From: Candidatus Hodarchaeota archaeon
GTDB lineage: Archaea > Asgardarchaeota > Heimdallarchaeia > Hodarchaeales > Hodarchaeaceae
Length of the DNA stretch: 57,359 nucleotides
Direction of reading: 5' to 3'
Assembly (NCBI GenBank): GCA_016839815.1
Contig: JAEOTM010000160.1
Span: 1-57,359, forward strand
Shown here: piece by piece, positions 21,676 to 54,291 of the stretch
Position numbering within the stretch: the stretch's first letter is position 1
Layout of the letters: every line of letters begins with the position of its first letter
Translations under genes and position numbers: made by a program
The notes under the pieces: generated by a model
What the model was told of the DNA's origin: nothing
Seen by the model: only the letters and a program-made list of their open reading frames with translations
The model's database searches: none

Positions 21676-21728
21676 GATTTCATCACATATATTTACTTAC
21701 AGACGTCGGAGAAAAAGTATCCCAGACT

Positions 21729-22340: not shown

Positions 22341-22342
22341 GT

Positions 22343-25627: not shown

Positions 25628-25634
25628 TCTATTC

Positions 25635-26255: not shown

Positions 26256-26264
26256 TGTTTTAAC

Positions 26265-27008: not shown

Positions 27009-27200
27009 CTAAAACTATGGAAATAGGGAGGAAGATTACTTTTCTTCAAGAACACTCCGCTATTGTTTTTTCTCTTAGTCAGGGTAACATTACTTAGAAT
27101 GCTTAAAAAATCCTCACAATTAGGAAGAGAAAAAGCCCTTACTTAAGAGTAAATTCCAATCAATAACGTAATCTCTTATAATGAGCTTAATCAGTACTTA

Positions 27201-28433
27201 TTATTTATTTACTGATTCAAAAAAGTCTAATATGGCTTCTCCTAATAACTCAAATGCCAAATTAATGTTTAAACCTGTTTTAGCACTCGTAGGAAGATAA
27301 TGGATATCAAACCCTCTATATTCCTTTGCTACATGAGAAAGAGTTTGAGCAAATTTTCTCGCTTTTGCATCAGAAACACCAATAATACCCTCATCACGTA
27401 AATCTGCTTTGTTTCCGAGAATAATGATAGGTACTGGTCCTCTACCATTAAGCTTCCAGAATTCGTTCATCCATCCAACTATATTTTGAAAACTCTCTAC
27501 ACGAGTAGTATCAAACACAACGATAGCACCCATGGCGGACATATAATAGGCTTTTCGAACTCCTTCAAATCGAGGTTGCCCAGCAAGATCCCATATTAAA
27601 TATTTAACTTGTCTTCCACCAGAATAGAGAACTGGGGATTCTTTACTAGCTAGATCCGCTCCGATAGTCATCTGATAATCATTTCTAAATCCTTCTCCCA
27701 GATATTGCCTTCTAATTGATGTTTTTCCAACTGCTCCATCACCAATCAGAATAATTTTTAATGTGTGATGCTCTTGTACAAAAGAAGCCTGAAACGCTGA
27801 AATTTGATTGAGTACCTCTTGTCTGAATTCAGAGCTATTTCGTAATGAATCTTCAGAGTATTTCTCCATAATTGATACGATTTGTATCGTAAGAGGTTCA
27901 ACTCTGTCTCGTGTAATTTGCTTAGTAGTCACAATTGCAAAAATATATTTTTCAGCAATGACAAAAAAATGAATTGTCTGAGATTCAAGCGATAATTCTT
28001 CAATAAGTTCCCCAAGTTTATGACGAACATAGTTCTTCATTGCATTTAAGATAAAACTTACTGATGTTTGACAACTGGCTTTATCTGAAAGGCAAATTTC
28101 AAACAATGGTAAACCAGAGTCTCTAAAGCAATTCACCATTACAATTTCTTCAGTCTTTTCAGAGTGAAATAATCCAAATTGCTCTAGTTTCTTCTTTTCT
28201 TCCTCCTCTGTCGGTAGAGAATGGGAATACACATCTTCTAGAATGTGAAGAAAATCACCACCGTCAGTTAAAGCATCTTCCAGATCCACTTGTACCTTTA
28301 AATAGAATTCTTCCATTTCCATGGCAGCAATATCTGATTCTATTTGTTTTTCAAGCATGGTAGTGTAATCTGGGCTATCAGGAGGTGAAGATTTCTTATC
28401 ATCTTCATCCGACATAATATACCTCCATTTCAA
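27201..28433 (-). CDS. Ras/Rab-like small GTPase with N-terminal roadblock/longin-like extension
   Basis: C-terminal G1 GDGAVGKTS, G3 WDLAGQ, G4 GNKADL. N-terminal ~200 aa alpha/beta region with a roadblock-like pattern. Confidence 0.8.
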   Translation of the reverse strand: MKWRYIMSDEDDKKSSPPDSPDYTTMLEKQIESDIAAMEMEEFYLKVQVDLEDALTDGGDFLHILEDVYSHSLPTEEEEKKKLEQFGLFHSEKTEEIVMVNCFRDSGLPLFEICLSDKASCQTSVSFILNAMKNYVRHKLGELIEELSLESQTIHFFVIAEKYIFAIVTTKQITRDRVEPLTIQIVSIMEKYSEDSLRNSSEFRQEVLNQISAFQASFVQEHHTLKIILIGDGAVGKTSIRRQYLGEGFRNDYQMTIGADLASKESPVLYSGGRQVKYLIWDLAGQPRFEGVRKAYYMSAMGAIVVFDTTRVESFQNIVGWMNEFWKLNGRGPVPIIILGNKADLRDEGIIGVSDAKARKFAQTLSHVAKEYRGFDIHYLPTSAKTGLNINLAFELLGEAILDFFESVNK

Positions 28434-28615
28434 TTTGGGGTTAACTCTAATAACGCCTCTTTTCCTTAAATAGGGTACTATATTCCTATTGAGATGAGCG
28501 TGAATTTTATAAGGAAAACGGTCTTGTGGTCTCTACAAAGAAATAAGTTGCGCATATATCAGAATTCGGGGAAGATAGAGTAATCGTTACGCTTTGTTAA
28601 ATGTACATTCCACGT

Positions 28616-29620
28616 TTACTCAAATTTGGAGAACAACCAAGGTATTAAATAAGCGAGACAAAAAGCAATTACAAAATACGATAAAAAATTGGTTGCTTGA
28701 GTTATCCATAAGAGATCAGACTGAAATTCCAGAACCAAATCCTCTATCCACTTTGCAGTAAAATATAAAATTGATATTGAAACAATACCAATAACAATGC
28801 GAACTGATAAGGATTTCTTATCAATATTTTCTGTAGAAAAGTTCACATATTTTAATTCAAACACTCGACCAACTACAATACCCGCAAATAATCCAGGATA
28901 TGTCCCAATATCTGCTTCAACCCAAACAACTGGATCAGATATTGAAATAGCTTCATTAAATGGGAATAAGCTTCCAATAATAAAGGCTATAACTCCTAGA
29001 AAGAATAGAAACAAACTAAATCCGAGTCCATACAGAATTTTCTCAGAATCAGTCCACTTCTTTGCTCTCATTTCTAACCATGGTTCGACTCGAATAAACA
29101 TCCAAGACAAAAATAGTCCGAATAAGACTCCTACTAGGATATCACCAGGCCAATGCACACCTAAGTACGACCTACTAAGGGGAATCGATATCAGAAGTAC
29201 TATACCTAAAACAAATAAGGGTAGATATTTAATTTTTTTTAGAATATAACCCCAGATTGCACCTTGAGTTTGTGAATGTCCCGAAGGGAAAGAATATCCA
29301 GCTGCGCCCCAAATTGTTTCTTGGTTTAACACATTAGTAGTTACCTGAAATTTTTCAGCGTTGTGTACGAATGGACGAGGATTATGAAAAAAGATTTTTG
29401 CTACATAGTTTAAATGAGCCGAGAAAACAAGTAAATAGATCAAATTTGTCATAAATTCTCTATCTAAAGTATAGTAAAGTAGTACAAGGATTATCAGAAT
29501 TGGAAGTGTGTTACCAAAAGTTGTTACTACTCCGAAGTATATATCTAGTAATATATTGGAAGTACTTTGTATTAAATCTAAGATAGTTTCCCCCAACGGG
29601 CCTAACAGTAGATCGGACAC
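28616..29620 (-). CDS. PAP2-family membrane phosphatase
   Basis: KIFFHNPRPF (KxxxxxxRP), FPSGHSQ (PSGH), SRSYLGVHWPGD (SRxxxxxHxxxD), multiple TM helices. Confidence 0.75.
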   Translation of the reverse strand: MSDLLLGPLGETILDLIQSTSNILLDIYFGVVTTFGNTLPILIILVLLYYTLDREFMTNLIYLLVFSAHLNYVAKIFFHNPRPFVHNAEKFQVTTNVLNQETIWGAAGYSFPSGHSQTQGAIWGYILKKIKYLPLFVLGIVLLISIPLSRSYLGVHWPGDILVGVLFGLFLSWMFIRVEPWLEMRAKKWTDSEKILYGLGFSLFLFFLGVIAFIIGSLFPFNEAISISDPVVWVEADIGTYPGLFAGIVVGRVFELKYVNFSTENIDKKSLSVRIVIGIVSISILYFTAKWIEDLVLEFQSDLLWITQATNFLSYFVIAFCLAYLIPWLFSKFE

Positions 29621-29805
29621 TTCTTAACACCAGTTTCCATAAAGCGCGAAAGATTACATTTAAACTTTCTTCTGAAATACTAGAAGAAATGGATAAGTTA
29701 TCCTACCTAGTATAAGTAAGATATGAAAATGATTATCAATAAGTGAATTTGATAAATCATTATTAAGGAATTAGTGGATTACCCATCCTTTTGATGTGAT
29801 CTCTC

Positions 29806-30555
29806 GTGAGTGAATCTGAATCAATAGTATGTCCAAATTGTAGTGAAAGAAGCCCAGCTGGGTATATTCTATGTCCTTACTGTGGATTTGATCTTACTAA
29901 AATTTTACGTCAAAGACAAAAAATAGGAATTACATTCAAAGAACGATTTTCGCGTATATGGAGAAGTCTTTCAGATCCCCGTGATAGTAAAATTCTGTTT
30001 AACGAGATTGGTGTCAACCCTGACCGTCTGGGTGTTATTATCTTATTGTACCTAGTTTCAGTTTCATATGCAACCGCTACAGTTGGAACACTCGTTATAA
30101 AGGGAAGCAGTTCAACTTGGCATGATTTCCATTTCTTCTACTTTTTGATTCAACCCTGGTTAACTGGAATAGCATTTTTCATTTTAGCAGTTTTTGGATG
30201 GATAGTCTCAACAATCATTATATGGCTAGTTGCTAAGACCCTTGGGGGAAAGGCAAGTTTGCGAGATACATACAGTATTGTAGGCTATTCGTTGGGCCCA
30301 CTGATTACTGCATGCTTGATTATTTCATTGGTTACGATTTTACTAGGTAAACCTCTTGATGTTACGGATACTCGTCTCTCCTCTGGTTATGCGATTTTTG
30401 ATATTATCTATTTACCGTTTTTAGCAATATGTGCTTATCATTGCGGGAATGGTCTTCAATCTGGTCATTTACTCAACCCTACATATTCTTATATACTTTC
30501 AGGCTCAGTAGCAGGAGGTTATGCCTTACTCTACCTTATCCCTGCTCTAGTTTGA
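29806..30555 (+). CDS. zinc-ribbon + polytopic membrane protein (Yip1-like)
   Basis: CPNCS...CPYCG N-terminal ribbon followed by five hydrophobic helices. Confidence 0.4.
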   Translation: MSESESIVCPNCSERSPAGYILCPYCGFDLTKILRQRQKIGITFKERFSRIWRSLSDPRDSKILFNEIGVNPDRLGVIILLYLVSVSYATATVGTLVIKGSSSTWHDFHFFYFLIQPWLTGIAFFILAVFGWIVSTIIIWLVAKTLGGKASLRDTYSIVGYSLGPLITACLIISLVTILLGKPLDVTDTRLSSGYAIFDIIYLPFLAICAYHCGNGLQSGHLLNPTYSYILSGSVAGGYALLYLIPALV

Positions 30556-30572
30556 GAATATATATTACAATC

Positions 30573-31694
30573 TCACGAATCAAATGATATTTCAAACTTT
30601 AAGGGTTTAGACAAAGAGGGATCTATAACACGAATAATATCTGCAGAACTAAGCAAATTTGAAAGTTTTTCCTTTGAAGAATCAATTGTTATTGTCCCAT
30701 GAATAATTATCATTTCCTTTCCGAGATTGAAGGAATAACGTAATTGATCTATAAAATCATCTATTTGTTGATCAATGGCTGATCTAACGGGAATAGCATT
30801 CAGTTGATATTCACTAGAACAGACAAAACAGTCTTCGCGGCGTGAGAGTTCGATAGCTGTAAATACACCTGCAGATCCATCCCAAAATAAGTATTCCTTA
30901 AGGGAAGGTAATTTTAAAAGAATTTTTAATGTTTCCTGCGCCATTAATCCACCTATCACGAATGAAACACTCGATACTGATGGAATAACTTCATCAACGG
31001 ACTCTTCTTGGCGACTTTCTTTCCTTTGCTCTCCAAAAGGTGTACAAGCCTTTTGTAATTCTTCTTCAGGAATTAAGGATTGACATTCCAAACAGGCATT
31101 CTTACGAGGAATAATGACCTGTAGATTTCCTAAGAATCCAAACATTCCTCCAGAAATTAAGGGAATGTTATGTTCAACTATGAAGGAATTTACCCATCTT
31201 CTATCTACGAATGTATCTAGCCCTTCTACAATAACTTCTGCTGTTTCTAGATCAGATGTTGGTACTACTTGAATTTTCATGTTCAAAGCTGTAACTTTTA
31301 AGTCTGAATTGATTTTCAACAACTCTCGAGCTGCTACTTCAACTTTGGATTTTCCAATATCTTCCATACGGAATAATAATTGACGATTCAAATTACTAAT
31401 TTCAATTGTATCAAAATCTACTAATATTAATTCTCCTACTCCAGCCATTGCTAGTGAAACAGCAGCTACTGAGCCCAATGCCCCCATACCTACAATTATA
31501 ACCTTACCGTCCCGAATTTTCTCTTGATCCCAGTTTTCGATAAGTGTTTGCCTATCATATCGAATTTTTTGAGATTCTTGAGTAAAATTGTCCATTTTTT
31601 TCCCCAGATTGAAGTAGGTAATAATCTTATAATTTCTCCAGCCTGTTTTATTTATATCTATAGAGATTTTATAATGTCTTGGAAACTGAAACAA
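30573..31694 (-). CDS. ubiquitin-activating E1-like enzyme (ThiF/MoeB/UBA fold)
   Basis: Nucleotide-binding GMGALGSVAAVSLAMAGVGELILVDFDTIEISNLNRQ, and a Cys-rich CxxC...CxxC insert. Confidence 0.85.
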   Translation of the reverse strand: MFQFPRHYKISIDINKTGWRNYKIITYFNLGKKMDNFTQESQKIRYDRQTLIENWDQEKIRDGKVIIVGMGALGSVAAVSLAMAGVGELILVDFDTIEISNLNRQLLFRMEDIGKSKVEVAARELLKINSDLKVTALNMKIQVVPTSDLETAEVIVEGLDTFVDRRWVNSFIVEHNIPLISGGMFGFLGNLQVIIPRKNACLECQSLIPEEELQKACTPFGEQRKESRQEESVDEVIPSVSSVSFVIGGLMAQETLKILLKLPSLKEYLFWDGSAGVFTAIELSRREDCFVCSSEYQLNAIPVRSAIDQQIDDFIDQLRYSFNLGKEMIIIHGTITIDSSKEKLSNLLSSADIIRVIDPSLSKPLKFEISFDS

Positions 31695-37187: not shown

Positions 37188-37640
37188 CTATTTTTGGTTC
37201 CAGTGTGCATAACGTCGGATATAATCCACCACTTGATTCTGAAATAAACTACGATTCCGTTTCCACTGACGTGCTGCAGTCGCATTTAGAGGATCATCTG
37301 GATTTGGACTTGTTAAGAGAAATCGAATTGTTTCAACAACTTGAACCAAGCTATATGCAGGACTCCAATCCTTCCCGAGAATACCCACACATACCTTTTC
37401 TCTAAATATATTTACATGCCAAATAGGAGTCTTGAATCGAACCTTTGGTGGTTCAAATGGATAACTACGAGGGATTTTTATTTCTATTACAAACACCCCT
37501 CCTTCATATAACCCCGAACCAAGAATCTCGCCTTTCCAAAATGTTAAATCATTTCCCACAGATCGGAAGGTAGGTTGTTCCCGAGTTAGCTCTTGAGCTT
37601 CAATTGCCAGTCGATCCAACCATTCTTCTTCCGTTAACAA
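37188..37640 (-). CDS. ubiquitin-conjugating enzyme E2 (UBC fold)
   Basis: PPKVRFKTPIWHVNIFREKVCVGILGKDWSPAYSL is the UBC core with the active-site Cys, then the SPNPDDPLN helix. Confidence 0.8.
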   Translation of the reverse strand: MLTEEEWLDRLAIEAQELTREQPTFRSVGNDLTFWKGEILGSGLYEGGVFVIEIKIPRSYPFEPPKVRFKTPIWHVNIFREKVCVGILGKDWSPAYSLVQVVETIRFLLTSPNPDDPLNATAARQWKRNRSLFQNQVVDYIRRYAHWNQK

Positions 37641-42172: not shown

Positions 42173-43348
42173 CTATCCATTTAGTTCCAGTAGTTTCTGA
42201 GATTTTAACGCCATCAGGTATTCTTCATTAGTTGGTATTACTAGAACTTGAACTTGAGAATTATTGGCTGAAATTGTTGTTTCTTCTTCCCCAATTGCTT
42301 CTTTATTACTAGAAGAGTCTAGAATTACGCCTAAACTTCCTAATCCATCCATGATTAATTCTCGGAAATACGGGGATCTTTCACCTATTCCACCCGTAAA
42401 TATAATTACATCTAATCCTCCCAATACAACAGAGTAGGCTCCTATATATTTCTGAATCCGATAAACAGCCATTTGGATAGCTAACTGCTCTTTTGAGTGT
42501 CCGCTCTGAGCACGGCTCTGGATATCACGCATATCTCTAAATCGGCCTGTAATTCCTAAGAAACCACTTTGAGAATTCAGTTCATAATCAATTTGATCTA
42601 TTGACAAGTTTTCAGATCGCATCATGGCAAGCATTATTCCTGGGTCAAGATCCCCAGAGCGAGTACCCATTATCAGTCCTTCAAGAGGAGTTAATCCCAT
42701 ACTTGTATCGACAGATTTTCCATCGTAGATAGCTGTTACTGATGCTCCATTACCGAGATGTAAAACGATAATTCTCTTACAATTTTCTGATTCCAATTTA
42801 TCTATAGCTCTATTGGTTACATATTCAACAGATGTACCATGAAAACCATATCTTCGATAAGAGTATTTTTCATACCATTTTCTTGAGATCGCATACTGAA
42901 AGGCATATTCTGGAATAGTATTATGAAATGAGGTGTCAAAAACAGCAATATGAGGAATTTTTGGGAGTTTCTTCTTACTAGCACGAATTCCCATGAGATT
43001 TGCAGGATTATGAAGCGGAGCAAGCTCAGAAAGATTTTTTATTTGGTTTTCAATCTCATTATCAATGACCACTTCTTTCCGGAACTCTTCACCACCATGT
43101 ACAACTCTATGGGCTACCGCGGCAATATCCTCTAAATTGAAAAATTTTAAAACATAATCAAGAGCATCTTCATGGTTCTTACAGCTTATTTCCTTTTTAA
43201 GCTCTTTATCTTCACCATTATGGACAATTTGAGAATTGGATAAACCAATCCTTTCTACTAATCCTTTAGCTAATAGCTGTTCAGATTCCATATTGTAAAT
43301 CGAATATTTGAGAGAAGATGAACCAGAATTTATGGTTAGGATAATCAA
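42173..43348 (-). CDS. ackA: acetate kinase
   Basis: MIILTINSGSSSLKY N-terminal ASKHA motif, VHGG, HLGNG, IFTGGIGE signature motifs. 391 aa. Confidence 0.9.
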   Translation of the reverse strand: MIILTINSGSSSLKYSIYNMESEQLLAKGLVERIGLSNSQIVHNGEDKELKKEISCKNHEDALDYVLKFFNLEDIAAVAHRVVHGGEEFRKEVVIDNEIENQIKNLSELAPLHNPANLMGIRASKKKLPKIPHIAVFDTSFHNTIPEYAFQYAISRKWYEKYSYRRYGFHGTSVEYVTNRAIDKLESENCKRIIVLHLGNGASVTAIYDGKSVDTSMGLTPLEGLIMGTRSGDLDPGIMLAMMRSENLSIDQIDYELNSQSGFLGITGRFRDMRDIQSRAQSGHSKEQLAIQMAVYRIQKYIGAYSVVLGGLDVIIFTGGIGERSPYFRELIMDGLGSLGVILDSSSNKEAIGEEETTISANNSQVQVLVIPTNEEYLMALKSQKLLELNG

Positions 43349-43358
43349 CCAAAACCCT

Positions 43359-44807
43359 CTAATAAGTACCTGACTTCGAATCGGTTCCTTTTACGATAGC
43401 TATTGAGGCAGAAGCTCCAATTCTAGTTGCACCCGCGTTGATCATTTGTTCTGCAATTTCATGAGTTCTAATTCCACCTGCAGCCTTTACTCCCATTTCT
43501 GGACCTACTGTTTTGCGCATGAGTGCGATATCCTCAACTAATGCTCCTGCGGTGCTAAAACCAGTGGAAGTTTTCACAAAATCTGCACCACTTAATTTTG
43601 TTAAAAGGCTACCTTTCACAATTTGCTCCTTGGTTAGTAGAGCAGTTTCAAGAATAACTTTAACAATAGCTTTTCCAGCCGCAGCATTTACAACAGCTTG
43701 GATATCTTCCCTAACTAGATCGTCATTTCCTGATTTTAAAGCACCAACGTTAATCACCATATCTACTTCTTCTGCACCATTTGCTATAGCATCACGTGTC
43801 TCAATGGCTTTTACTGTTGGAGTTGTGGCTCCTAAAGGAAAACCAATTACGGTACACACTTTTACAGAACTACCTTTCAGATATTTTGCTGCTTTTGAGA
43901 CGTTTGTTGGATTAATACACACTGTGGCAAATTTATACGTAGCTGCTTCTTCACAAAGCTGTTTAATCTCTTCATCCGTCGCATCTGCACGTAAATTCGT
44001 GTGATCGATGTATTGAGCCAACCCCATATCATAACCGTTAATTCCCGTTTCAGAGGTTATCCTTGTGGCTCCTCCATTAACTAATGCTTTGACTGCAACT
44101 TGAGATTTTCCATCTAAGCCAATATCTTTTCCTGCAGTCCCAACTGTGTAGGTACGACTAGAGGGGGATGGAATATAAGAAGAAGGATCCTGATCGGTAA
44201 GATTTTGTACCTCTACAATTTTTATTCCCATAGATCTTAATTGATCTACAATCCCTTCAATTCTTCTATTCATAGCTGGTGGCACTTGATCTTTTTCAAT
44301 TTGACAACAATATATTGAATCATAAGCAGCAATCACAGGTTTTCCATACATCAATCCGAAAACAAGTGTAATTGTACCAAGAGTATCTGCATTTAACGCA
44401 GCCACCTTAGCTGCTGTATTTAAAGAAAGAATAGGCACATAGATAACATCAATTTTTCCTAAGATGTTTTCAAAATACTCTTCGGAATAATCTGTGATAA
44501 TCATAGCTCCTTCAGAGACTTTTCTAATATCAGGCATTCCGATGATTTTGATAGCTGCACGAGTCATAACGATGTACGTATTTGTATAGGATTTAGTTAT
44601 TAGTTCTATTTGATGCATTACTTCATTGATTTCTTTATTTCCACCGCATAGGAGAATCAAAGCAGAGGTTCCTGAGGAAATACTGTAATTTACTTTCTTA
44701 TTAGAAGTCTGTAACCTTGGGTTTGACTGTGTTGGAGGAGTAAGTGAATCCTGATCAAGCTTTCTCATAACCTCCTCTGTAATTTTTTGTATCATTTCAT
44801 TACTCAT
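43359..44807 (-). CDS. deoC: deoxyribose-phosphate aldolase (DeoC) with N-terminal encapsulation-peptide-like helix and ~200-aa extra domain
   Basis: C-terminal ~230 aa align with DeoC, including Schiff-base Lys in FVKTSTGF. N-terminal [17 protein letters not shown] amphipathic helix plus linker. Middle alpha/beta domain unassigned. Confidence 0.8.
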
Positions 44808-44826: not shown

Positions 44827-45117
44827 TTAACTTAATTCTATTTGTTTTCCGTTGACTTCGACGTAGTCCACGACACCTATTATTAATGCATCAACCGCTG
44901 CTTTATCATTTTGCATTATCCCTCGTATAGAGTTACCTTCGCGAATCACAAGAACACAATCTCCAATTCCGGCTTTTGCTGTATCCAACGCGATAATTGA
45001 TGGATCAGTAAACTCTCCTTTCAAATCTATCGGACGTACTACTAGTATCTTTCCATTTTCATGACTTTCCGTCTTGATTGGAGCTACTACATTCCCAATA
45101 ACTTTAGCAAGAATCAT
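44827..45117 (-). CDS. BMC vertex protein (BMC-P, EutN/PduN/CcmL family)
   Basis: 96 aa, MILAKVIGNVVAPIK...GIGDCVLVIREG...IIGVVDYVEV is the EutN fold. Confidence 0.85.
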   Translation of the reverse strand: MILAKVIGNVVAPIKTESHENGKILVVRPIDLKGEFTDPSIIALDTAKAGIGDCVLVIREGNSIRGIMQNDKAAVDALIIGVVDYVEVNGKQIELS

Positions 45118-45656
45118 TCTGACTCACTCACTACAGGTTCAGGCTCAATTTCTTGAATTTTTTTTGGTATTTTCTTTCTAACTGATTTTTTCCTAGGTTT
45201 TTTCTTAGGAATAGGTTTCGTTTCTTCATCTACTTCCGCAGGAGGAACTTTAGATTTAGGGATCGATTCTAGAGCTGTTTTTTCTGTAATTTCCCTGATT
45301 TCTTCCTCAGGTTCTTCCTCAAGTGGTTTCAGTGTGGGTGGTGGTGCTTTCTTCTTCCGTTTTCTCTGAGGTTTTCGTTTTGCACTTTTAGTTACATAAT
45401 ACTCCTCTACATAACCTACAATACACTCATCAATTGGAACAAGCTCTTTCGGAAATACAATAGCTGCTTCTTTTTTACTGACAACATATACAATATCTCC
45501 AGGTCCTGCCGTCTCGATTCCATCAGCAGCAACATAAGGGGTTCCTAAGGGCTGAAGATTATCGTCTAATCCTTGGACTATTAGAAGTCGTAATGAATTC
45601 AAACCTGGATCTTTTGTCGAGGCAACAACATTTCCTATTACTTTACCAAGTTTCAT
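45114..45656 (-). CDS. BMC-P vertex protein with ~90-aa Lys/Glu/Pro-rich C-terminal tail
   Basis: N-terminal 90 aa EutN-like (MKLGKVIGNVVAST...). C-terminal KRKPQRKRKKKAPPPTLKPLEEEPEEE...KKKPRKKSVRKKIPKK is low-complexity. ATGA overlap with the downstream gene. Confidence 0.8.
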   Translation of the reverse strand: MKLGKVIGNVVASTKDPGLNSLRLLIVQGLDDNLQPLGTPYVAADGIETAGPGDIVYVVSKKEAAIVFPKELVPIDECIVGYVEEYYVTKSAKRKPQRKRKKKAPPPTLKPLEEEPEEEIREITEKTALESIPKSKVPPAEVDEETKPIPKKKPRKKSVRKKIPKKIQEIEPEPVVSESE

Positions 45657-45660
45657 ATAA

Positions 45661-46119
45661 TCACGCTGACTTCAGATATTTTAATTCAATTTCAGTAATT
45701 TTATTCACTCTCGTTTCATGCCTTCCTCCACCAACTGGAGTAGTCAACCAGATTTTAACAATATTTTGAGCAATACCAGGTCCGATAACTCTTGCACCTA
45801 AAGTTAGGACATTTGAGTTATTGTGTTCTCGTGCAGAATTAGCAGTAAATTCATCAGTACATGGAGTAGCTCTGATTCCTTTTATCTTGTTGGCAATAAT
45901 TGCACTAGCAACTCCTGTTCCATCGATTATAATTCCTACGGATTCTAAGGACACAGCTACTGTCTGAGCCACTAATAAAGCGATATCAGGATAATCCACA
46001 GGATCAGTAGAATAACATCCATAATCTGTAACGTCATATCCTAATCCTTTAAGGAATTTAATCAAATCTTTCTTCAGATGATATCCTCCATGATCGGATC
46101 CAATTATTATTTTCTTCAT
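45661..46119 (-). CDS. rpiB: ribose-5-phosphate isomerase B / sugar-phosphate isomerase (RpiB/LacAB)
   Basis: MKKIIIGSDHGGYHLK...GCYSTDPVDYPD...GTGVASAIIANK...VLTLGARVIG is the RpiB family, 152 aa. Confidence 0.85.
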   Translation of the reverse strand: MKKIIIGSDHGGYHLKKDLIKFLKGLGYDVTDYGCYSTDPVDYPDIALLVAQTVAVSLESVGIIIDGTGVASAIIANKIKGIRATPCTDEFTANSAREHNNSNVLTLGARVIGPGIAQNIVKIWLTTPVGGGRHETRVNKITEIELKYLKSA

Positions 46120-46144: not shown

Positions 46145-46690
46145 TTAAAGTAGAGTTTTCACTAAATCGGGGTGAGGAGCAGGAATTATTGCTATAGAGA
46201 GTATTAATCCTTCGCCCTTTACGCGATTAACCCCTGCTTCCACAGCTGCTCTTACAGCACCAACTTCTCCTGTTAAGACTACGAAAGCTTTTCCACCAAT
46301 TGCACGACTCATCCGAATTTCGACTAGCCGCACCTGTGCACTTTTCACAGCCTCATCACCAACCATTATGGCCGTTGGAGCAGAATATGTTTCGACGACT
46401 CCGATTGCACCAACTTCATCGATATTTGTTGAACCTGCAATTGCGGGGAATACCTCAGGGTGAATGTTTGGTATCACTGTATAATTTACTAGGGTTTCAC
46501 CAGCGATTTCACTTCCAGCAATCAAGGAGCTTTGAACAGCTGCAACTGCTCCTTGAATTATTATCAAATACTTCCCAGGGCATACTGGTGATGCGAATAG
46601 CAGCTCTACGTCAGCTGTTTTTACAATCGTATCCGCACTTAATATACCTCGAGCAATTACATTCGTCTCAAGAACTCCGATTGCGCGCAT
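46145..46690 (-). CDS. BMC-T tandem-domain shell protein, PduT-like with conserved Fe-S cysteine
   Basis: Two BMC domains in 181 aa. SPVCPGKYLII matches PduT ICPGKFLL (the Cys that ligates the trimer 4Fe-4S). Second domain AIGVVETYS... Confidence 0.8.
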   Translation of the reverse strand: MRAIGVLETNVIARGILSADTIVKTADVELLFASPVCPGKYLIIIQGAVAAVQSSLIAGSEIAGETLVNYTVIPNIHPEVFPAIAGSTNIDEVGAIGVVETYSAPTAIMVGDEAVKSAQVRLVEIRMSRAIGGKAFVVLTGEVGAVRAAVEAGVNRVKGEGLILSIAIIPAPHPDLVKTLL

Positions 46691-46766: not shown

Positions 46767-47045
46767 TCAACCTTTCTTTGGAAGTATACTCTCAACTTCA
46801 TCATGAGGTCGTGGAATCACATGAGCTGAAGTTAATTCACCAACTTTTCGCGCAGCAACTGCACCAGCTTCAACAGAAGCTTTGACAGCACCTACATCAC
46901 CTCTAACCATTACAGTGACGAATCCACCGCCAATAACTTCGCGTCCCATTAGATGAACGTTCGCTGCTTTCACCATAGCGTCAGCCGCTTCAATAGATGC
47001 AACTAACCCTTTTGTTTCTATTAATCCAAGTGCTTCTTTAGCCAT
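46767..47045 (-). CDS. BMC-H hexameric shell protein (PduA/EutM-like)
   Basis: [27 protein letters not shown]...[23 protein letters not shown] is the canonical Pfam00936 sequence. Confidence 0.9.
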
Positions 47046-47071: not shown

Positions 47072-48397
47072 TTATTTTGTCTTTTCAATGACAATTTCTT
47101 GTCCAATATGCCGGATAATCCCGCTGATACTCGCGTGAATTACCGCACCTAGTGACCCATCAGGAATTTTCCCAATGAGTGCACCTTTTTCTACCGTTTC
47201 TCCTACTTTCACAATGGGAATAGCAGGGTCACCGATATGTTGTTTGAGAGGTATTGAGACTTGTCGAACCTGCATCTTCCGTTTTTGAATTGGACAATCG
47301 TGATTATAACTAATTAAATCCAATCGAGAAATTAGTCGTTTTACAGGTAGTTTTCGGTATTCCCTCTCAGGATGAATCGATAGTACTTTTCGATTATGAG
47401 AATTTTTTAATCCTTCCGCTCTCAACTGTTCTTTAACTTCTGTCATCATTTTACAGGGATCTAAACCCATAGGACATCCATAATAAGTACAGGCTCCACA
47501 TTCTACACAAAGGAATGTTCCAGTCATATATTCAGGTCTTTCGGGTGCTCCCCAAGCTATACCTCGCATGACTTTATCAGGGTATAATTCATGACCTAAC
47601 AAAAACCTAGGACACACTTCTGTGCATAATTGGCATCTTATACAGGCCGCTTTGGTAACTATAACTTTAGAGGAAATCCTTTCATTTTTCATTTTTAAAA
47701 CGAAATGATCCTTAGGTAAGACTATAATTCCAGAAGTTAATTTTGTAATAGCTTCTTTAGGATCAATAGCTTTACCCATCATTGGACCATTAATTAATAT
47801 ACCATAATTATCGATTGTAGCTCCTCCTGCGGCTTTGATTGCATCTTTTATGGAGGTGCCTATTGGAAAATCCATAGTAGTGGGATTTTTTACTGCACCT
47901 GTAATAGTAACGTATCGAGAGACAATCGATTTGCCTTCAGAAGCTTCAGAAAGGTTTATTAACGTGTATACATTATTAACTACCACCCCTATATCAAGAG
48001 GAAGCCCACTTTCCGGAATTATTTTCCCTAAGGCCTCATACACTAGAACATGCTCATCTCCAGCAGGATAAACATCATCTAGTAGGAGAATTTCAAGTCG
48101 TGAATCTGTTTTTATTACCTGTTTTAGCTTCTTAATTGCAGCTTTATATTTTCTTTTTACTGCAATAATCCCTCTTTTTGCCCCAGTTGCTTTCATCCCT
48201 AATTGTAGTCCATTCACTAATTTTTCTGGGAAAGCTACCATTAATTGTTGATCTACTCGTAAAAGAGGTTCACATTCTGCTGCATTCACAATGTAGGTAT
48301 CCACTTTTGCAGATAGCTTTATATGAGTAGGAAAGCCAGCTCCTCCTGCTCCTACTATACCAGAATTGCGAGCCATTTCTACAATATCGGAACTCAA
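47072..48397 (-). CDS. PduS/RnfC-like Fe-S flavoprotein oxidoreductase
   Basis: GAGGAGFPT NAD(H)-binding motif and two 4Fe-4S motifs (CIRCQLCTEVCP, CVECGACTYYGCP). 441 aa. Confidence 0.75.
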   Translation of the reverse strand: MSSDIVEMARNSGIVGAGGAGFPTHIKLSAKVDTYIVNAAECEPLLRVDQQLMVAFPEKLVNGLQLGMKATGAKRGIIAVKRKYKAAIKKLKQVIKTDSRLEILLLDDVYPAGDEHVLVYEALGKIIPESGLPLDIGVVVNNVYTLINLSEASEGKSIVSRYVTITGAVKNPTTMDFPIGTSIKDAIKAAGGATIDNYGILINGPMMGKAIDPKEAITKLTSGIIVLPKDHFVLKMKNERISSKVIVTKAACIRCQLCTEVCPRFLLGHELYPDKVMRGIAWGAPERPEYMTGTFLCVECGACTYYGCPMGLDPCKMMTEVKEQLRAEGLKNSHNRKVLSIHPEREYRKLPVKRLISRLDLISYNHDCPIQKRKMQVRQVSIPLKQHIGDPAIPIVKVGETVEKGALIGKIPDGSLGAVIHASISGIIRHIGQEIVIEKTK

Positions 48398-48423: not shown

Positions 48424-49851
48424 TCATATTATTCTGAAAGCATCTACAAGAGTACATCGTCTTTGTCTTGTAAAGGTTCTTGCAGAGGTAAGTCCTTCTC
48501 CTGTTGGACCTGCTATCGTCATGGTAGTGTACCCCTCTCCTCCGAAACCTATTCCAGCCAATGATGGTGCATTTTTAACGAAGATGGTTGTTTCTATATT
48601 TTTTGCTACTAAACTCATATTCCCTACTGAATCACTCCACATCATTGCTGTATGCTTAAATCCATGTTCTGCTTTCTTAGCCTTTCGTAACGCTTCCTCT
48701 ATTGTCTTAACCCGAACTATTGGGAGAACAGGCATTAACATCTCAGAAATCACAAATGGGTGTTCATCATCAGGCACCTCAGCAATTATTAAGCGAATAT
48801 TATCGCTAACTTGGATACCTATTCCCTCAAGAATTACTTTAGCATCTTTCCCAATGAAATCTCTATTGACGATAGGAAATCTTCCCTTCTTCCCTGTAAA
48901 CACAAGATTCTCCAATTGAATGATTTGGTCTCCAGTAAGTTCATATGCCCCATAATTCTTCATTTCTGCCTTTAATCGGTTCGTAATTGCGTCAAATGCA
49001 AAGACTTCCTTTTCAACAATGCAAACAATATTATTATCAAAACTTGCACCTTCCACAATCCCCCTCGCTGCTTTTTGAATATCAGCTGTATCATCCACAA
49101 TGACAGGAGGATTTCCTGGACCAGCACAGACTGCTTTCTTTCCAGATTGCATAGCCGCTTTAACAACCGCACTACCCCCAGTTACTACCAAGCATCTTAT
49201 TTTCTTGTGGGTCATTAGAGTCTGTGCTGACTTGATTGTGGGGGATATTGTTGACGTAAGCACATTCTCTGGACCTCCAGCTTCTAAAATTGCCCTATTC
49301 AATAATCTGACTGCTTCATTACTTGCTCTTTTAGCTGAGGGATGAGGATTAAAAACTACTGAATTTCCTGCAGTAACCATTGAAATTCCGTTGTTAATAA
49401 CGGTTGCAGTTGGATTGGTCGAGGGCGTAATAGATCCAATTACACCGTATGGGGCCATTTCAACTAATGTTAATCCTTTATCTCCTGTCCATGTATTTGG
49501 TACTAAATCTTCTAGCCCAGGAGTCTTACGGGCACATAATAAGTTTTTTGCAACCTTATCCTCTAATCGTCCTAAATTAGTCTCTTGAATTGCTAATTCA
49601 GCAAGATATCGGGAATGTTTGATGGCTGTATCACGCATTGATTGGATAATTTCTTTACGCTTTTCAAGTGAAAGATCCATTAATGCAGTTTGACTTTTTT
49701 CTGCAGCTTCAATGGCCTGCTCAATGTTCTGAAATATACCCCCTCCTGCAACGGCGGGGAGATTTTCTAAACCCGAATAAACCTGATAAGCACGTATTTT
49801 TTGTACAACAGTATTGACGATTTTGGCAATTTGTTGTTCATCATATGTCAT
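48424..49851 (-). CDS. CoA-acylating aldehyde dehydrogenase (EutE/PduP family) with N-terminal encapsulation-peptide-like helix
   Basis: Strong EutE-like blocks (GPGNPPVIVDDTADI, catalytic Cys in DNNIVCIVEKEVF, C-terminal TSARTFTRQRRC). N-terminal EQQIAKIVNTVVQKI amphipathic helix. Confidence 0.85.
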   Translation of the reverse strand: MTYDEQQIAKIVNTVVQKIRAYQVYSGLENLPAVAGGGIFQNIEQAIEAAEKSQTALMDLSLEKRKEIIQSMRDTAIKHSRYLAELAIQETNLGRLEDKVAKNLLCARKTPGLEDLVPNTWTGDKGLTLVEMAPYGVIGSITPSTNPTATVINNGISMVTAGNSVVFNPHPSAKRASNEAVRLLNRAILEAGGPENVLTSTISPTIKSAQTLMTHKKIRCLVVTGGSAVVKAAMQSGKKAVCAGPGNPPVIVDDTADIQKAARGIVEGASFDNNIVCIVEKEVFAFDAITNRLKAEMKNYGAYELTGDQIIQLENLVFTGKKGRFPIVNRDFIGKDAKVILEGIGIQVSDNIRLIIAEVPDDEHPFVISEMLMPVLPIVRVKTIEEALRKAKKAEHGFKHTAMMWSDSVGNMSLVAKNIETTIFVKNAPSLAGIGFGGEGYTTMTIAGPTGEGLTSARTFTRQRRCTLVDAFRII

Positions 49852-49899: not shown

Positions 49900-50190
49900 T
49901 CACTTTCTATAGCTTTCTTTTCCATTTATCTGTATGAAATCAATTATTGCTTGAATTGTTGCATCAGTTGGTCGATCTTTAGTCATTGCAGTCAGACGAG
50001 AGGAGCTACCTGTTACAACTAACACTAATTCATCTTCTCCTGCTCCAACTGCATCAATAGCTACAAAGGGAGAGCTCTCTGGTTTTAGGTCAGTCATGTC
50101 CACTGGTTGAACAATTAAGAGTTTAAAACCTTTAATACCGGCATCCTTCTCAGTACTTACTACATTTCCGATAACCTTACATACTTTCAT
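49900..50190 (-). CDS. BMC vertex protein (BMC-P)
   Basis: MKVCKVIGNVVSTEK...GAGEDELVLVVTGSS is the EutN/CcmL fold, 96 aa. Confidence 0.85.
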   Translation of the reverse strand: MKVCKVIGNVVSTEKDAGIKGFKLLIVQPVDMTDLKPESSPFVAIDAVGAGEDELVLVVTGSSSRLTAMTKDRPTDATIQAIIDFIQINGKESYRK

Positions 50191-50201: not shown

Positions 50202-50921
50202 CTAAATCTTAATGATTTTTATATCTAGCATTTTGGCCTTTTCGTGAGCTAGAGGCGTTATAATAGTTGAATGTGGTACAAATATTTCATGAGTTTTACC
50301 TTGTAAATTCTCTAAATAATCTTCAGTTATTAAATCTGGAATAGCGGGAGTATGTTTGACAAATTGGTCAGCTAAATCGTCAACATTTACTAATCTAAAT
50401 CCCATTTCAATCAAAGTGGAAAGGTGTTTGCTCAATTGATTGGTCAATATCCCAGACGGCCCATAAGCAAACGTTAGTTCTGTTGGAGGAAATGGAGTAA
50501 CTATATAAACTGGAATTTGAGATAACAAGCCTTGAAGTAATAAATTAACTGTTGAATTAGAATCTTCTAAATGGGTGATTTTGTTAGCAAGCTCAAAACT
50601 AAAAGCACCATACATTACTGATTCAAGGTCGTTGTAAAACTGTAAACAAAAATCTCCGCTCGATTTAATTATAATATCCATAGTTGGAATTGATGCAGCT
50701 CGTGATGTGAATTTGAGGGCATCATTAATATCTTTCTTAGTCCAAATTAGAATCTTCGCCTGTTTTTGAGCTAGTCTGACAAGAGCATTGAACAAATCAT
50801 CCAGTCCTTGCCCCATATGTGTTAAGATGCCTAGTATTTCATATGGTCCAAGTTTTTGGTCAGGTGTGAGAACACTTCTTACTTGCTGAGTTACAAGTGA
50901 TTCAAGCTCTTTCTCATTCAA
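50202..50921 (-). CDS. BMC-associated protein of unknown function with N-terminal encapsulation-peptide-like helix
   Basis: KELESLVTQQVRSVL amphipathic N-terminus plus linker, then a 200-aa alpha/beta domain with no recognised motif. Embedded between shell genes. Confidence 0.4.
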   Translation of the reverse strand: MNEKELESLVTQQVRSVLTPDQKLGPYEILGILTHMGQGLDDLFNALVRLAQKQAKILIWTKKDINDALKFTSRAASIPTMDIIIKSSGDFCLQFYNDLESVMYGAFSFELANKITHLEDSNSTVNLLLQGLLSQIPVYIVTPFPPTELTFAYGPSGILTNQLSKHLSTLIEMGFRLVNVDDLADQFVKHTPAIPDLITEDYLENLQGKTHEIFVPHSTIITPLAHEKAKMLDIKIIKI

Positions 50922-50938: not shown

Positions 50939-51259
50939 TTAATCTCTACCAGGATCTTCTTCTACACTTGAGGTCCGCTTTCTGACTTTCTCAATTAGCT
51001 CGATTGTCACCTTATCTGGCCGTGGAATCACATTGGTAAGTAACCCACAGGAAATCTTACGAAGTTGCTGTTTTGCAGCTTCAATTGCTTCATGAACTGC
51101 TGCAACCTCACCCTCAATGATCACTATCACAAGACCACCAGAAACACGTCTTAATGAAATTAGATTCACATCAGCAGCTTTCATAGCTGTATCTGTGGCT
51201 ACAATAGCACCGATGCGTCCACAAGTCTCCATGAATCCAATTGCGTCCATAATTTTCAC
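50939..51259 (-). CDS. BMC-H hexameric shell protein
   Basis: DAIGFMETCGRIGAIVATDTAMKAADVNLI...GGLVIVIIEGEVAAVHEAIEAA. 106 aa. Confidence 0.85.
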   Translation of the reverse strand: MKIMDAIGFMETCGRIGAIVATDTAMKAADVNLISLRRVSGGLVIVIIEGEVAAVHEAIEAAKQQLRKISCGLLTNVIPRPDKVTIELIEKVRKRTSSVEEDPGRD

Positions 51260-53112
51260 CTGAATGGAGAAAAAGCCTCTTTATCTAAATCCGTGATTAA
51301 TGTCCCCATTTCTCCATTATTCAGTGCTAAGGCATTACCCTCATCAAGGTCCAGATGCAACTCCAGACTATAATCAGGATGAACTCTAATCATGACCTCA
51401 TCTAATATTCCTGCTCGTGTTCCTGGAAATTTAACCGCTACTACCTGTTTATCATTTACACTTAGTCTTTGTGCATCTTTGGGTGACATGTGAATGTGTC
51501 GTGCAGCAAATATAACTCCTTTTTCTAGTGTGATTGCTCCTTTGGGGCCAAGAAGATGTACCCCAGGAGTACCTGCTAAATTTCCTGATTGACGTGTAGG
51601 TGGATTTATCCCTAAAACATACCCATCACTACGAGAAATTTCTACTTGGGTCTCTTTTCTAAAAGGACCAAGAATTCGTACCCCATAGATTGCTCGTTTA
51701 GGACCAATTAAATCAACTACTTCTTCACATGCATATTCTTTCGGCTGGGAAAGGGAATTTAGAGGAGTTAGAGATGCATCTTCTCCAAAAAGTTTATGGA
51801 AATCACTCTTTTCCAAATGAATATGCCGTGCAGAGAGAGAGACTGGAATCTGGTTATCGCTAATAACTTTGGACAACTCTTGAGTAATAATCCTTCTTAC
51901 TAAGTTTTTATTACTTGGAGAACTATTTCGGTGAGTAATCGGTTGATACTCACACCCTAGAGGACCACAATATCTACCTACATACTCCGCAGATGGTCGA
52001 TAAATTACAGGCTTAACTGAAGGTGTTTCTGGATATTTTTCTTCCAATACATGAGCTGTCCACCCTGCTACTCTTGATGTTGTAAAGATTGGTGTAAATA
52101 AATCTACAGGTATGTTAAGACTCGTATAAACTGTAGCTCCATATAAATCTACGTTGGGATAGATCCCCCGATTCTTTCTCCGCTTAAATTCAGCCTGCGT
52201 AATCTCAACCATTTTATTTGTAGTTTCGTACATCCACTTAGCAATTCCCCCCTTCTGTTTAACAAGATCACCTGCCATTTCCTTGAGTATTTTGGCCCTT
52301 GGATCAATTGTTCGATAAACAGCATGACCCATTCCCATAACTCGTTTACCAGCATTAAAACGATTCTTTACCCATTCTTCAATACTTGGGGCTTTTTTGA
52401 TTTCCATTAAACTCTCATAGACAAGATAATTCGCTCCTCCATGATATTGTCCTGATAATGATCCGATTGCTCCAGAAATAGCTGCATAGAGATCTGCTCC
52501 TGTTGAGGCGATGACTCTTGCAGTAAATGTGGATGCATTAAAGGAATGTTCAGCATGCAAAATTAATGAGACATCAAAGATTCTTGTTTCTTCCTTTGGG
52601 GGGATTTTTCCATGAAGCATAAAAAGAAAATTAGCTGCATAGTTTAATTTGGGATTCGGCGATATAGGATCCTTATTATTTCTTATTCGTTCCCATGCAG
52701 TCACTATTATAGGGAGAAGCGCAATGATTTTTACTGCAATATTTCGATCTGACTCTTTTGTCCCTCTCCCTATCTCAGTATCATATCCTGCTAATAAGGC
52801 TAAAGACGATTGAAGAACACTCATGGAAGGAGTTGCTTTTGTAGTTTTTTGTAAATGAGTTATCAACTCTGAAGGGAGCTTTTGGTTTGATCGAATTGAA
52901 GTCTTGAATGATTTCAATTTGTCTAAAGAGGGGAGTTTTCCAAACAAAAGTAAATATACTACTTCTTCGTACGTTGAATTTCTCGCTAAATCCTTTATGT
53001 CATATCCACGAATAAAAAGATTCCCCTTATCTCCTTCAATCAAGCAAATATTAGTATCTGCAACTTCGACTCCACGGAGACCAGTTGATTTGTGGCTATG
53101 TTCTTCAATCAT
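51256..53112 (-). CDS. fusion protein: citrate-synthase-like domain (N) + PduL-type phosphotransacylase (C)
   Basis: Residues 1-~390 carry citrate-synthase-family blocks (LILHAEHSFNASTF, GMGHAVYRTIDPRA, RVAGWTAHVLEE). Residues ~400-618 carry two PduL (PF06130) repeats (ARHIHL, ARHIHM). ATGA overlap with the downstream BMC-H. Confidence 0.75.
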   Translation of the reverse strand: MIEEHSHKSTGLRGVEVADTNICLIEGDKGNLFIRGYDIKDLARNSTYEEVVYLLLFGKLPSLDKLKSFKTSIRSNQKLPSELITHLQKTTKATPSMSVLQSSLALLAGYDTEIGRGTKESDRNIAVKIIALLPIIVTAWERIRNNKDPISPNPKLNYAANFLFMLHGKIPPKEETRIFDVSLILHAEHSFNASTFTARVIASTGADLYAAISGAIGSLSGQYHGGANYLVYESLMEIKKAPSIEEWVKNRFNAGKRVMGMGHAVYRTIDPRAKILKEMAGDLVKQKGGIAKWMYETTNKMVEITQAEFKRRKNRGIYPNVDLYGATVYTSLNIPVDLFTPIFTTSRVAGWTAHVLEEKYPETPSVKPVIYRPSAEYVGRYCGPLGCEYQPITHRNSSPSNKNLVRRIITQELSKVISDNQIPVSLSARHIHLEKSDFHKLFGEDASLTPLNSLSQPKEYACEEVVDLIGPKRAIYGVRILGPFRKETQVEISRSDGYVLGINPPTRQSGNLAGTPGVHLLGPKGAITLEKGVIFAARHIHMSPKDAQRLSVNDKQVVAVKFPGTRAGILDEVMIRVHPDYSLELHLDLDEGNALALNNGEMGTLITDLDKEAFSPFR

Positions 53113-53346: not shown

Positions 53347-54291
53347 GTGTTAATTAGAGGTTTTTCACTTGACACATCTTACCATTGTTCTGATTGTCAT
53401 TTGAAATGTTGTGCAACTGAATTCAATCTACCCCTGTGTGGATCAGAAAAATCGATTCTGAGTCAATATTACCCCGAATATCAGTTTTACCTTCAATCAA
53501 CTACAGATGGAGATTATATCCTTCGTGGGAATTCATGTCCGTTTTTAACAAACAATGGTTTGTGTCAGCTTCATTCTAAACATTTGAAACCACTCACATG
53601 TCAAATTTACCCGTTATTGTTTTGGCGATATTCCACCACCGATACTTTAGTCTCAATTCATCCTTGTCGGGGAAATGGGTTCAGTTGGTACTCAAGAAGT
53701 AATTCGCAGATCAGCAATCCTCAGCTTGAAGAACTTTTAACCAAGGCAAACATGCATTTTGAATCCTATTGGGGAGAAAATATAGACAAAAATAATCCCT
53801 ACGCAGGTATTTCCCCTACAAGGATTGAATCCCAAATAGATTACTATAATACCATTCCAGAAGACCAGTTATTGGTAAAAATAACAAGTGATTCTAATCT
53901 ACCTTCTCGATTTCTGGATTCTCAATCATCCTCTGAAAAAACCCTTATTATGATTAAAGATGGTATAGTAGGGAGATATCTAAATTCTGTACTTAATTGG
54001 CTGATTTGGAGTCCCGTAGGACTTCAGCTATCAATAAAAAACGCTCAAATGATATTTTCTGTAGCAGCTTTCTGGTTGATTAAACAGACAGAATTGAATC
54101 CTAAAATCAAAACCACTATCTTAAACAGTACTGACTATACCGAGCAAGTGGCTTCATATTATGCGAGTTCCATCCTTCCAACGTTCTGGCTTAAGATCGT
54201 CTCTGAGAGAGAAAATAAGGCTCTAAGTTCTTTCGCTAAAAAAGTATACTTAATTCTCATGGGAAAACTCTCTCAGGAGGATTTACTATAA
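53347..54291 (+). CDS. YkgJ/UPF0153-family Cys-rich (putative Fe-S/Zn) protein
   Basis: CSDCHLKCC (CxxCxxxCC) plus later Cys pairs. 314 aa. Confidence 0.45.
   Translation: MLIRGFSLDTSYHCSDCHLKCCATEFNLPLCGSEKSILSQYYPEYQFYLQSTTDGDYILRGNSCPFLTNNGLCQLHSKHLKPLTCQIYPLLFWRYSTTDTLVSIHPCRGNGFSWYSRSNSQISNPQLEELLTKANMHFESYWGENIDKNNPYAGISPTRIESQIDYYNTIPEDQLLVKITSDSNLPSRFLDSQSSSEKTLIMIKDGIVGRYLNSVLNWLIWSPVGLQLSIKNAQMIFSVAAFWLIKQTELNPKIKTTILNSTDYTEQVASYYASSILPTFWLKIVSERENKALSSFAKKVYLILMGKLSQEDLL

Follow-up and report, generated by a model that had tools for sequence, protein, structure and literature searches.

Archaeal microcompartments were described in a preprint of November 2025 (Du et al., bioRxiv 2025.11.08.687404, PMC12747264), which presents them as sugar-phosphate-utilisation (SPU) metabolosomes acquired from Myxococcota and lists, as a core enzyme of the Hodarchaeales compartments, a citrate synthase (CS) joined to a PduL-type phosphotransacylase domain (CS+PTAC), proposing two routes of coenzyme A (CoA) recycling. 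The same authors located a peptide in the linker between the two domains and reported that, in E. coli, enzymes bearing an encapsulation peptide (EP) and tagged with green fluorescent protein, CS+PTAC among them, were recruited to shells only when the peptide was present; shells assembled in this host, and those of a related genome were closed and enclosed enzyme. The fusion is given one sentence in that paper, which contains no enzymology and no residue-level, distribution or origin analysis of the CS. Here, we analysed a stretch of 57,359 nucleotides from Candidatus Hodarchaeota archaeon (assembly GCA_016839815.1, contig JAEOTM010000160.1, positions 1 to 57,359; hereafter the window), in which a microcompartment operon opens with a CS-linker-PduL fusion of 618 amino acids (aa). 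Its architecture, operon type, gene order, lineage and proposed role are those of the CS+PTAC of Du et al., and nothing essential differs: the fusion had already been described, and the window is another member of their system. An initial annotation, made from the sequence, had known of no such fusion as a core enzyme of bacterial microcompartments (BMC), a statement that the preprint supersedes. What is added here is conservation at the level of residues, the distribution of the fusion, the absence of the CS from bacterial relatives, the states of sister operons and the reading of the linker as the PduL peptide. With the discovery itself public, the remaining value lies in the biochemistry and in the details of distribution and origin.

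The bacterial SPU compartments (Dwyer et al. 2024, PMC11585597; here, the Myxococcota loci L088-L090) share with the window a deoxyribose-5-phosphate aldolase (DERA), RpiB, an aldehyde dehydrogenase (AldDH), a PduS-like dehydrogenase, PduL, the protein termed 'DUF', and H, T and P shell genes. Unlike the window, however, the Myxococcota SPU loci lack a CS, and their PduL has a C-terminal extension and no N-terminal peptide. The paper characterising the bacterial system never mentions citrate, and in the literature searched we found no publication other than the preprint that links a citrate synthase to a metabolosome.

Architecture of the citrate synthase-PduL fusion

The fusion is encoded on the minus strand by one ATG-started, uninterrupted frame that exactly fills 51256-53112; the plus strand of this interval holds many stop codons. 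Single-frame homologues of identical architecture make up more than 30 protein clusters, 58-83% identical to the window fusion and drawn from independent NCBI, JGI, ENA and Logan assemblies; some lie on contigs as long as 1.39 and 4.9 Mb. The linker is conserved as well, with L404, E412 and P423 invariant in an alignment of 18 fusions. Could two adjacent genes have been merged by a sequencing or assembly error? Some relatives do hold the two genes apart at a distance of just 20-80 bp, but their CS ends differently, either with an extra C-terminal domain or with a stop codon, after which the spacer is interrupted by stops in every frame. Because a continuous frame and a conserved linker recur in more than 30 independently assembled clusters, we give such an artefact next to no chance: a frameshift or misassembly is not credible and, judging from these sequences, appears excluded for practical purposes.

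The N-terminal half has the hallmarks of a complete citrate synthase. Residues 11-373 match Pfam Citrate_synt (PF00285) over model positions 1-356 of 357 (E 3.4e-119, 398.5 bits), and the motifs named in the initial annotation are present (LHAEH at 185, GMGHAVY at 260, PNVD-LY at 319, GWTAH at 350). Aligned over the whole domain with the type I dimeric archaeal CS of M. sedula (MsCS, PDB 6abx; ~39% identity; residue roles from PMC6386500), H224, H263 and D322 coincide with His214, His253 and Asp307 of the catalytic triad, and N192, R272, R347 and R372 with the oxaloacetate/citrate ligands Asn182, Arg262, Arg332 and Arg351'. The last of these is supplied to the partner subunit by the C-terminal arm; in archaeal type I CS, which is dimeric, this arm wraps around the partner (PMC6386500). 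All checked catalytic and substrate-binding residues are invariant in the 18 fusions. Unlike MsCS, the window CS is encoded in a microcompartment operon, and its C-terminus runs on into a presumed targeting helix and a second enzyme. Set beside type I archaeal CS, it also falls under the NCBIfam equivalog cut-offs; its best NCBIfam model is TIGR01800 ('2-methylcitrate synthase/citrate synthase II'), which it matches with 404.9 bits against a cut-off of 421.3. Membership of the CS family thus appears secure at the sequence level, while the exact subfamily and, because of the scores below cut-off, the substrate specificity are not settled. Near the end of the CS domain lies an invariant Cys pair, Y-C-G-P-x-G-C (aa 381-386, 51955-51972), within a four-residue insertion relative to solved archaeal CS structures. 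As a candidate fusion-specific trait this pair was rejected, since it also occurs in unfused CSs, including the Nitrososphaeraceae-named P0113, and is a trait of the subfamily.

The PduL half is equally complete. Residues 423-597 match Pfam PTAC/PduL (PF06130) over model positions 1-175 of 176 with both repeats at full length (E 3.8e-71), and the NCBIfam model for phosphate propanoyltransferase (NF011652) is matched with 247.7 bits, above its cut-off of 209. The half aligns without gaps to R. palustris PduL (rPduL, PDB 5cuo; active site from Erbilgin et al. 2016, PMC4784909), so that H430, H432, E491, H539, H541 and H586 fall on the di-zinc site (His48, His50, Glu109, His157, His159 and His204) and R485, S509, Q489, R576 and N593 on Arg103, Ser127, Gln107, Arg194 and Asn211. 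Active-site comparison returns just two differences, Lys70 to Asn and Phe116 to Tyr. The six zinc ligands are invariant in the 18 fusions, and so are the listed active-site residues of both halves, save R485, which is Lys in one subclade. In that fused subclade (P0021-P0029), to which the proteins encoded on the Heimdallarchaeota contigs of 1.39 and 4.9 Mb belong, GPKRAIYGVRILGP is changed to GSKRSIKGVCVLKP.

Besides the two full-length repeats, the zinc ligands, Arg103 and Ser127, the window PduL has in common with rPduL an amphipathic encapsulation peptide immediately N-terminal to the domain. Unlike in rPduL, this peptide is internal, as a 395-aa CS comes before it; the host is an archaeon, and there is an extra conserved C-terminal tail ending in SPFR. 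The tail motif, D-x-D-x-x-S-[FY]-S-P-F-R, comes after the PduL domain whether the Hodarchaeales protein is fused or not (window 51259-51297; locus L003 12140-12179). Myxococcota PduLs lack it and instead carry a Cys-containing C-terminal extension of ~30 aa, with no N-terminal helix.

Between the two halves, the linker NLVRRIITQELSKVISD is amphipathic, with a hydrophobic moment of 0.51 that ranks among the highest ~3% of the protein's 14-residue windows. In alignments it falls on the N-terminal helix of unfused Hodarchaeales PduLs (for example MANDQLTDLVRRLVLLELSS...QVIPV), and it resembles the N-terminal helices of the AldDH, DERA and DUF proteins of the operon. The linker helix is best read as the N-terminal EP of PduL, now internal. 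Its role as a targeting signal is presumed, and rests for function on the experiments of Du et al.

Both AlphaFold models predict a helix at about 401-417. In the first, built on the alignment of 18 fusions, the PduL half had a predicted local distance difference test score (pLDDT) below 50 and was unusable. The second, built on a mixed alignment of 121 sequences (fusions and single-domain homologs), reached a mean pLDDT of 85.9, with both domains above 90 and a predicted template modelling score (pTM) of 0.62; its low-confidence parts are the N-terminus, the C-terminal arm of the CS (365-380) and the linker (397-417). This is the confidence pattern expected of two independent domains on a flexible tether. 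Superposition of the CS half on solved CS structures gave TM scores of 0.83-0.89 (MsCS about 0.87), and a structure search with the model found no PDB chain that spans both the CS and the PduL halves.

How does the initial annotation compare? Its observations stand: the coordinates, the single 618-aa frame, the complete CS domain with its catalytic residues kept (borne out by the full-length profile match and the MsCS alignment) and the two-repeat PduL at the C-terminus (borne out by PF06130 and NF011652). It had stated neither the minus strand nor the archaeal host, and the compartment is archaeal, not bacterial. It had also proposed searching other genomes for the same fusion and predicting the two-domain structure; the former returned the >30 clusters and the latter two confidently folded domains with a low-confidence tether between them. 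Its interpretation, discussed below, is supported in part.

Role of the fusion in the compartment

What might such a protein do inside a shell? By its predicted gene content, the operon is an SPU metabolosome: it holds the Hodarchaeales SPU-type set, with DERA, AldDH, ribose-5-phosphate isomerase and a PduS-like dehydrogenase as enzymes and two H, one T and three P genes for the shell. We consider it probable that, in this archaeal SPU microcompartment, the fusion is a bifunctional encapsulated enzyme of CoA recycling that offers acetyl groups two exits. DERA would generate acetaldehyde, which AldDH would convert to acetyl-CoA, drawing on a CoA pool private to the compartment. The PduL half could then free CoA by releasing acetyl-phosphate, which would leave and yield ATP via the acetate kinase of the operon; the CS half could free it by condensing acetyl-CoA with imported oxaloacetate to citrate, which would pass out to the tricarboxylic acid (TCA) cycle or to biosynthesis. 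The linker helix, inherited from the N-terminal peptide of PduL, would target the whole protein to the shell. The CS would thus enter the compartment by covalent attachment to PduL, and the fusion may chiefly serve to carry the CS in, at fixed stoichiometry.

Related operons are in line with such parallel roles. Operons with CS only (L001/L002), with PduL only (L084-L086) and with both (L003, L087 and the window) all occur, as one would expect if either enzyme alone were enough for CoA recycling. Condensation of acetyl-CoA inside the compartment, which the initial annotation had put forward, is the best-supported reading. The alternative offered there, a CoA-binding scaffold repurposed and no longer catalytic, is unlikely, as the catalytic and substrate-binding residues checked in the CS half are all invariant; together with the view of the fusion as undescribed, this is the part of the interpretation that finds no support.

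In the current view, the acyl product of a metabolosome leaves as acyl-phosphate, or as acyl-CoA through a large pore. If the proposed role is true, a condensing enzyme within the shell adds a third exit, citrate. The shell must then pass oxaloacetate and citrate, and a catabolic compartment is linked directly to central anabolism.

Several points weigh against a bifunctional recycling enzyme. The CS half stays just under the TIGR01800 cut-off and far under all citrate-synthase equivalog cut-offs of NCBIfam. In the P0021-P0029 subclade, the phosphate-contacting Arg103 is replaced by Lys and six residues are deleted from the first PduL repeat, and the PduL half of these proteins may be altered in its properties. 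The relative placement of the two domains is not confidently predicted, as the pTM of 0.62 indicates. Catalysis by either half is deduced from sequence and not from enzymology, and we likewise infer the native luminal location, the crossing of the shell by oxaloacetate and citrate, and the division of flux between the two exits. Lastly, fusing two competing enzymes is unusual, as fusions more often join consecutive steps.

This last point is where a sequential channel gains its appeal. In such an arrangement, the PduL half would make acetyl-CoA from acetyl-phosphate and CoA and the CS half would condense it with oxaloacetate, so that acetyl-phosphate and oxaloacetate give citrate and phosphate while CoA cycles between the two sites, for example in acetate assimilation via acetate kinase. 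The joining of consecutive steps is common among fusions in general, the PduL reaction is reversible and that of CS strongly exergonic (established biochemistry), an acetate kinase lies in the same operon, and both active sites are intact. Nevertheless, the AldDH of the operon already supplies acetyl-CoA and needs its CoA back, which is the service that PduL renders in bacterial metabolosomes (PMC4784909). Moreover, CS-only operons have neither PduL nor acetate kinase, and PduL-only operons have no CS, so the enzymes are not interdependent. We therefore regard the channel as unlikely.

No better placed, in our judgement, is a mainly architectural role, in which an obligate CS dimer and PduL oligomers would cross-link cargo and nucleate the core of the compartment, with CS catalysis secondary. 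The oligomeric states would suit it: archaeal type I CS is a dimer with a partner-wrapping C-terminal arm (PMC6386500), PduL is dimeric and becomes hexameric when its EP is present (PMC4784909), and the modelled tether is long and flexible. However, a purely structural role does not require invariance of all catalytic and substrate residues of the CS, and related operons make do, apparently, without CS (L084-L086) or without PduL (L001) in assembling their compartments.

Could the CS half condense another acyl-CoA, for instance as a 2-methylcitrate synthase? Its best NCBIfam model is a mixed one, no citrate-synthase equivalog cut-off is reached, and solved PrpC structures resemble it almost as closely as those of CS do. 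The consecutive action of DERA and AldDH, however, leads through acetaldehyde to acetyl-CoA and not to propionyl-CoA. Its closest relatives are archaeal and bear the annotation citrate/2-methylcitrate synthase, and among solved structures the best match is to a citrate synthase that has been characterised, all of which leaves this option improbable to us. Least plausible among the functional alternatives, and barely worth entertaining, is reverse cleavage, with CS splitting citrate and PduL draining the acetyl-CoA to acetyl-phosphate: reversible CS does run in reversed oxidative TCA cycles, but CS reversal and acetyl-phosphate formation are in sum strongly endergonic by standard free energies and the operon context is catabolic and acetyl-CoA-producing.

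Distribution and history of the fused citrate synthase

In an exhaustive HMMER pass over 1.84 billion representative proteins, one 50%-identity cluster (P0025) matched across residues 2-617; all other top hits were CS alone. The closest named bacterial relatives of the AldDH of the operon are from Myxococcota, and three donor-like Myxococcota loci (L088-L090) share the core order PTAC-DUF-EutN-AldDH-MNdh, yet neither gene calls nor tblastn found a CS in them. Nor is there a CS within 10 kb at 80 reference-genome PduL loci, apart from one Hodarchaeota genome; this set came from a genome-contig scan with the PduL half, consists mostly of generic Firmicutes PduLs with only that one Hodarchaeota genome, and serves as a negative control. 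Because the Myxococcota loci and these bacterial PduL loci are without a nearby CS, the CS looks to have been added within the archaeal lineage. On this view, the fusion documents functional remodelling following inter-domain gene transfer. Those of its nearest CS relatives outside such operons that have taxon names are archaeal (Nitrososphaeraceae, Ranarchaeia). An archaeal origin of the CS half is thus suggested by a few named hits (Nitrososphaeraceae, Ranarchaeia, Hodarchaeales) together with its absence from bacterial loci. For the PduL half, a neighbour-joining distance tree recovered the Myxococcota sister relationship claimed by Du et al. in 4/100 bootstraps, a value that, with a short domain and a crude method, is not evidence against that claim.

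Among sister Hodarchaeales operons, CS and PduL are found in four states, read as stages before and after fusion besides the fusion itself. In the first, a long CS of 496-534 aa carries an EP-like helix after the CS domain (in some cases also an N-terminal one) and a small C-terminal domain; in L003, a separate EP-PduL follows 20 bp on, and in the type II operons L001, L002 and L091 there is no PduL. In the second (L087), a bare CS of 402 aa precedes an EP-PduL, the two being separated by a spacer of 80 bp in which every frame has stops. The third is the fusion, as in the window and L004, and the fourth PduL only (L084-L086), with no CS remnant upstream. The unfused CSs (long, P0037-P0042; bare, P0035) are 55-60% identical to the window's in the CS domain and sit at the same place in the operon, immediately ahead of PduL or of the first shell gene. 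The long forms have EP-like helices of their own and a C-terminal domain (...ITPLARDRA..GI.I), in place of which the fusion has its covalent link to PduL.

How did the fusion arise? In neighbour-joining trees, all operon CSs group together, and Asgard PduLs form one clade (100/100 bootstraps) with L003-type PduLs basal. The fused PduLs are never monophyletic by themselves (0/100), as those of the PduL-only operons and of L087 branch within the group. The simplest reading of these trees would be a single fusion, with one fission and one loss thereafter; given how crude they are, repeated fusion is a possible alternative. As to the event itself, we considered recombination between the post-CS helix and the similar N-terminal helix of PduL. 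Simple loss of a stop codon and spacer is at least as likely, because a stage with bare CS and EP-PduL exists (L087).

Two features of the sister operons deserve mention in their own right. In one type II lineage, two genes for ATP-citrate lyase immediately precede the compartment CS in the same orientation (L001 6731-9866; L002 2-988); they are missing from that position in L091, a close relative of L001/L002, and no ATP-citrate lyase was found in the window. Du et al. (PMC12747264) make no mention of this enzyme beside a compartment CS. Furthermore, L003 (GCA_048885365.1) is labelled Candidatus Odinarchaeota in NCBI, although its PduL and AldDH group with Hodarchaeales and its operon is complete; either the bin is mislabelled or the system reaches beyond Hodarchaeales.

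Taken together, the history and the proposed chemistry invite a broader idea, which we put forward tentatively and with more doubt than confidence: the archaeon, not the bacterial donor, would have added a CS to an imported microcompartment and then fused it to PduL, so that acetyl groups are exported as citrate from a protein-bounded compartment by the logic of the mitochondrial citrate shuttle, in the archaeal lineage closest to eukaryotes. If true, the upstream ATP-citrate lyase of one type II lineage would complete the shuttle, with citrate moving out and acetyl-CoA being regenerated in the cytosol. The supply of oxaloacetate would then set whether carbon leaves as citrate, for biosynthesis or respiration, or as acetyl-phosphate, for ATP.

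Operon, host and neighbouring genes

The operon runs on the minus strand from 53112 down to 42173 (Table 1), in the order fusion, BMC-H, a 239-aa protein without a Pfam family, BMC-P, AldDH, PduS/RnfC-like protein, BMC-H, BMC-T, RpiB, BMC-P, BMC-P, DeoC (that is, DERA) and acetate kinase, an order equal to that of L003, L087 and L084-L086. The stop codon of the fusion overlaps (GTGA) with what could be a GTG start for the following gene, and an ATG lies 8 nt downstream, which is ordinary operon packing.

Table 1. Positions of the fusion, its parts and the other genes of the operon in the window
Feature	Position	Strand	Remarks
CS-linker-PduL fusion, 618 aa and stop codon	51256..53112	minus	first gene of the operon
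CS half, aa 1-395	51928..53112	minus	catalytic H224, H263, D322; ligands N192, R272, R347, R372
Linker amphipathic helix, aa ~401-417, NLVRRIITQELSKVISD	51862..51912	minus	presumed internal encapsulation peptide
PduL phosphotransacylase half, aa 422-605	51298..51849	minus	zinc ligands H430, H432, E491, H539, H541, H586; phosphate contacts R485, S509
Conserved C-terminal tail, aa 606-618, ...DLDKEAFSPFR	51259..51297	minus	also in unfused Hodarchaeales PduL
BMC-H shell hexamer protein (H1)	50939..51259	minus	
239-aa protein, no Pfam family ('DUF' of Du et al.)	50202..50921	minus	N-terminal EP-like helix
BMC-P vertex pentamer protein (P1, EutN-family)	49900..50190	minus	
CoA-acylating aldehyde dehydrogenase (AldDH)	48424..49851	minus	N-terminal EP-like helix
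PduS/RnfC-like NADH dehydrogenase, FMN and Fe-S domains	47072..48397	minus	
BMC-H shell hexamer protein (H2)	46767..47045	minus	
BMC-T tandem-domain shell protein	46145..46690	minus	
RpiB-type ribose-5-phosphate isomerase	45661..46119	minus	
BMC-P vertex protein (P2), 180 aa, EutN-family	45114..45656	minus	95-aa tail
BMC-P vertex protein (P3)	44827..45117	minus	
Deoxyribose-5-phosphate aldolase (DeoC/DERA), signature enzyme of the operon	43359..44807	minus	N-terminal EP-like helix and weak flavoprotein-like N-terminal domain
Acetate kinase	42173..43348	minus	

Two of these proteins have conspicuous C-termini. The tail of P2 has 28% Lys+Arg over its 95 aa, with acidic stretches interspersed, and matches the DNA-binding disordered tail reported for AMC-P2 by Du et al. 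(PMC12747264). In the 239-aa protein, the final ~40 residues (LITEDYLENL...IITPLAHEKAKMLDIKI) contain a motif that recurs in the small C-terminal domain of the long unfused CSs (P0037-P0042; BLASTP E 0.002). Both regions are weakly like the E3-binding (peripheral subunit-binding) domain, at a Pfam E of 0.1-0.25, below threshold, and may represent a docking module common to cargo proteins.

Upstream of the fusion, an AT-rich spacer of 235 bp separates its ATG from a divergently transcribed gene on the plus strand (53347-54291), which encodes a 314-aa protein without a Pfam family. Genes for no-Pfam proteins of 318-335 aa hold the same divergent position in L084, L086 and L087, as compared by position and size rather than sequence; the 314-aa protein could be a regulator or an accessory factor.

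As for the host, the contig also encodes ESCRT-I, -II and -III, Vps4, ubiquitin E1, two E2-like proteins, a Ras-like GTPase, RadA, TFIIB and PAC2, and every named homologue of the fusion comes from Candidatus Hodarchaeales/Heimdallarchaeota. On account of these genes and the names of the homologues, the sequence identifies the host as an Asgard archaeon of Hodarchaeales type. Genes of eukaryote-like kind form a dense cluster at 19711-31694 and comprise a Vps25-like protein (ESCRT-II), Vps4, two Snf7, EAP30 (Vps22/36-like), Vps28, a UQ_con E2-like protein, a 410-aa Ras/Roc GTPase, Yip1 and a ThiF-type E1. With a second E2 at 37188-37640, they lie just 5-20 kb from the microcompartment operon.

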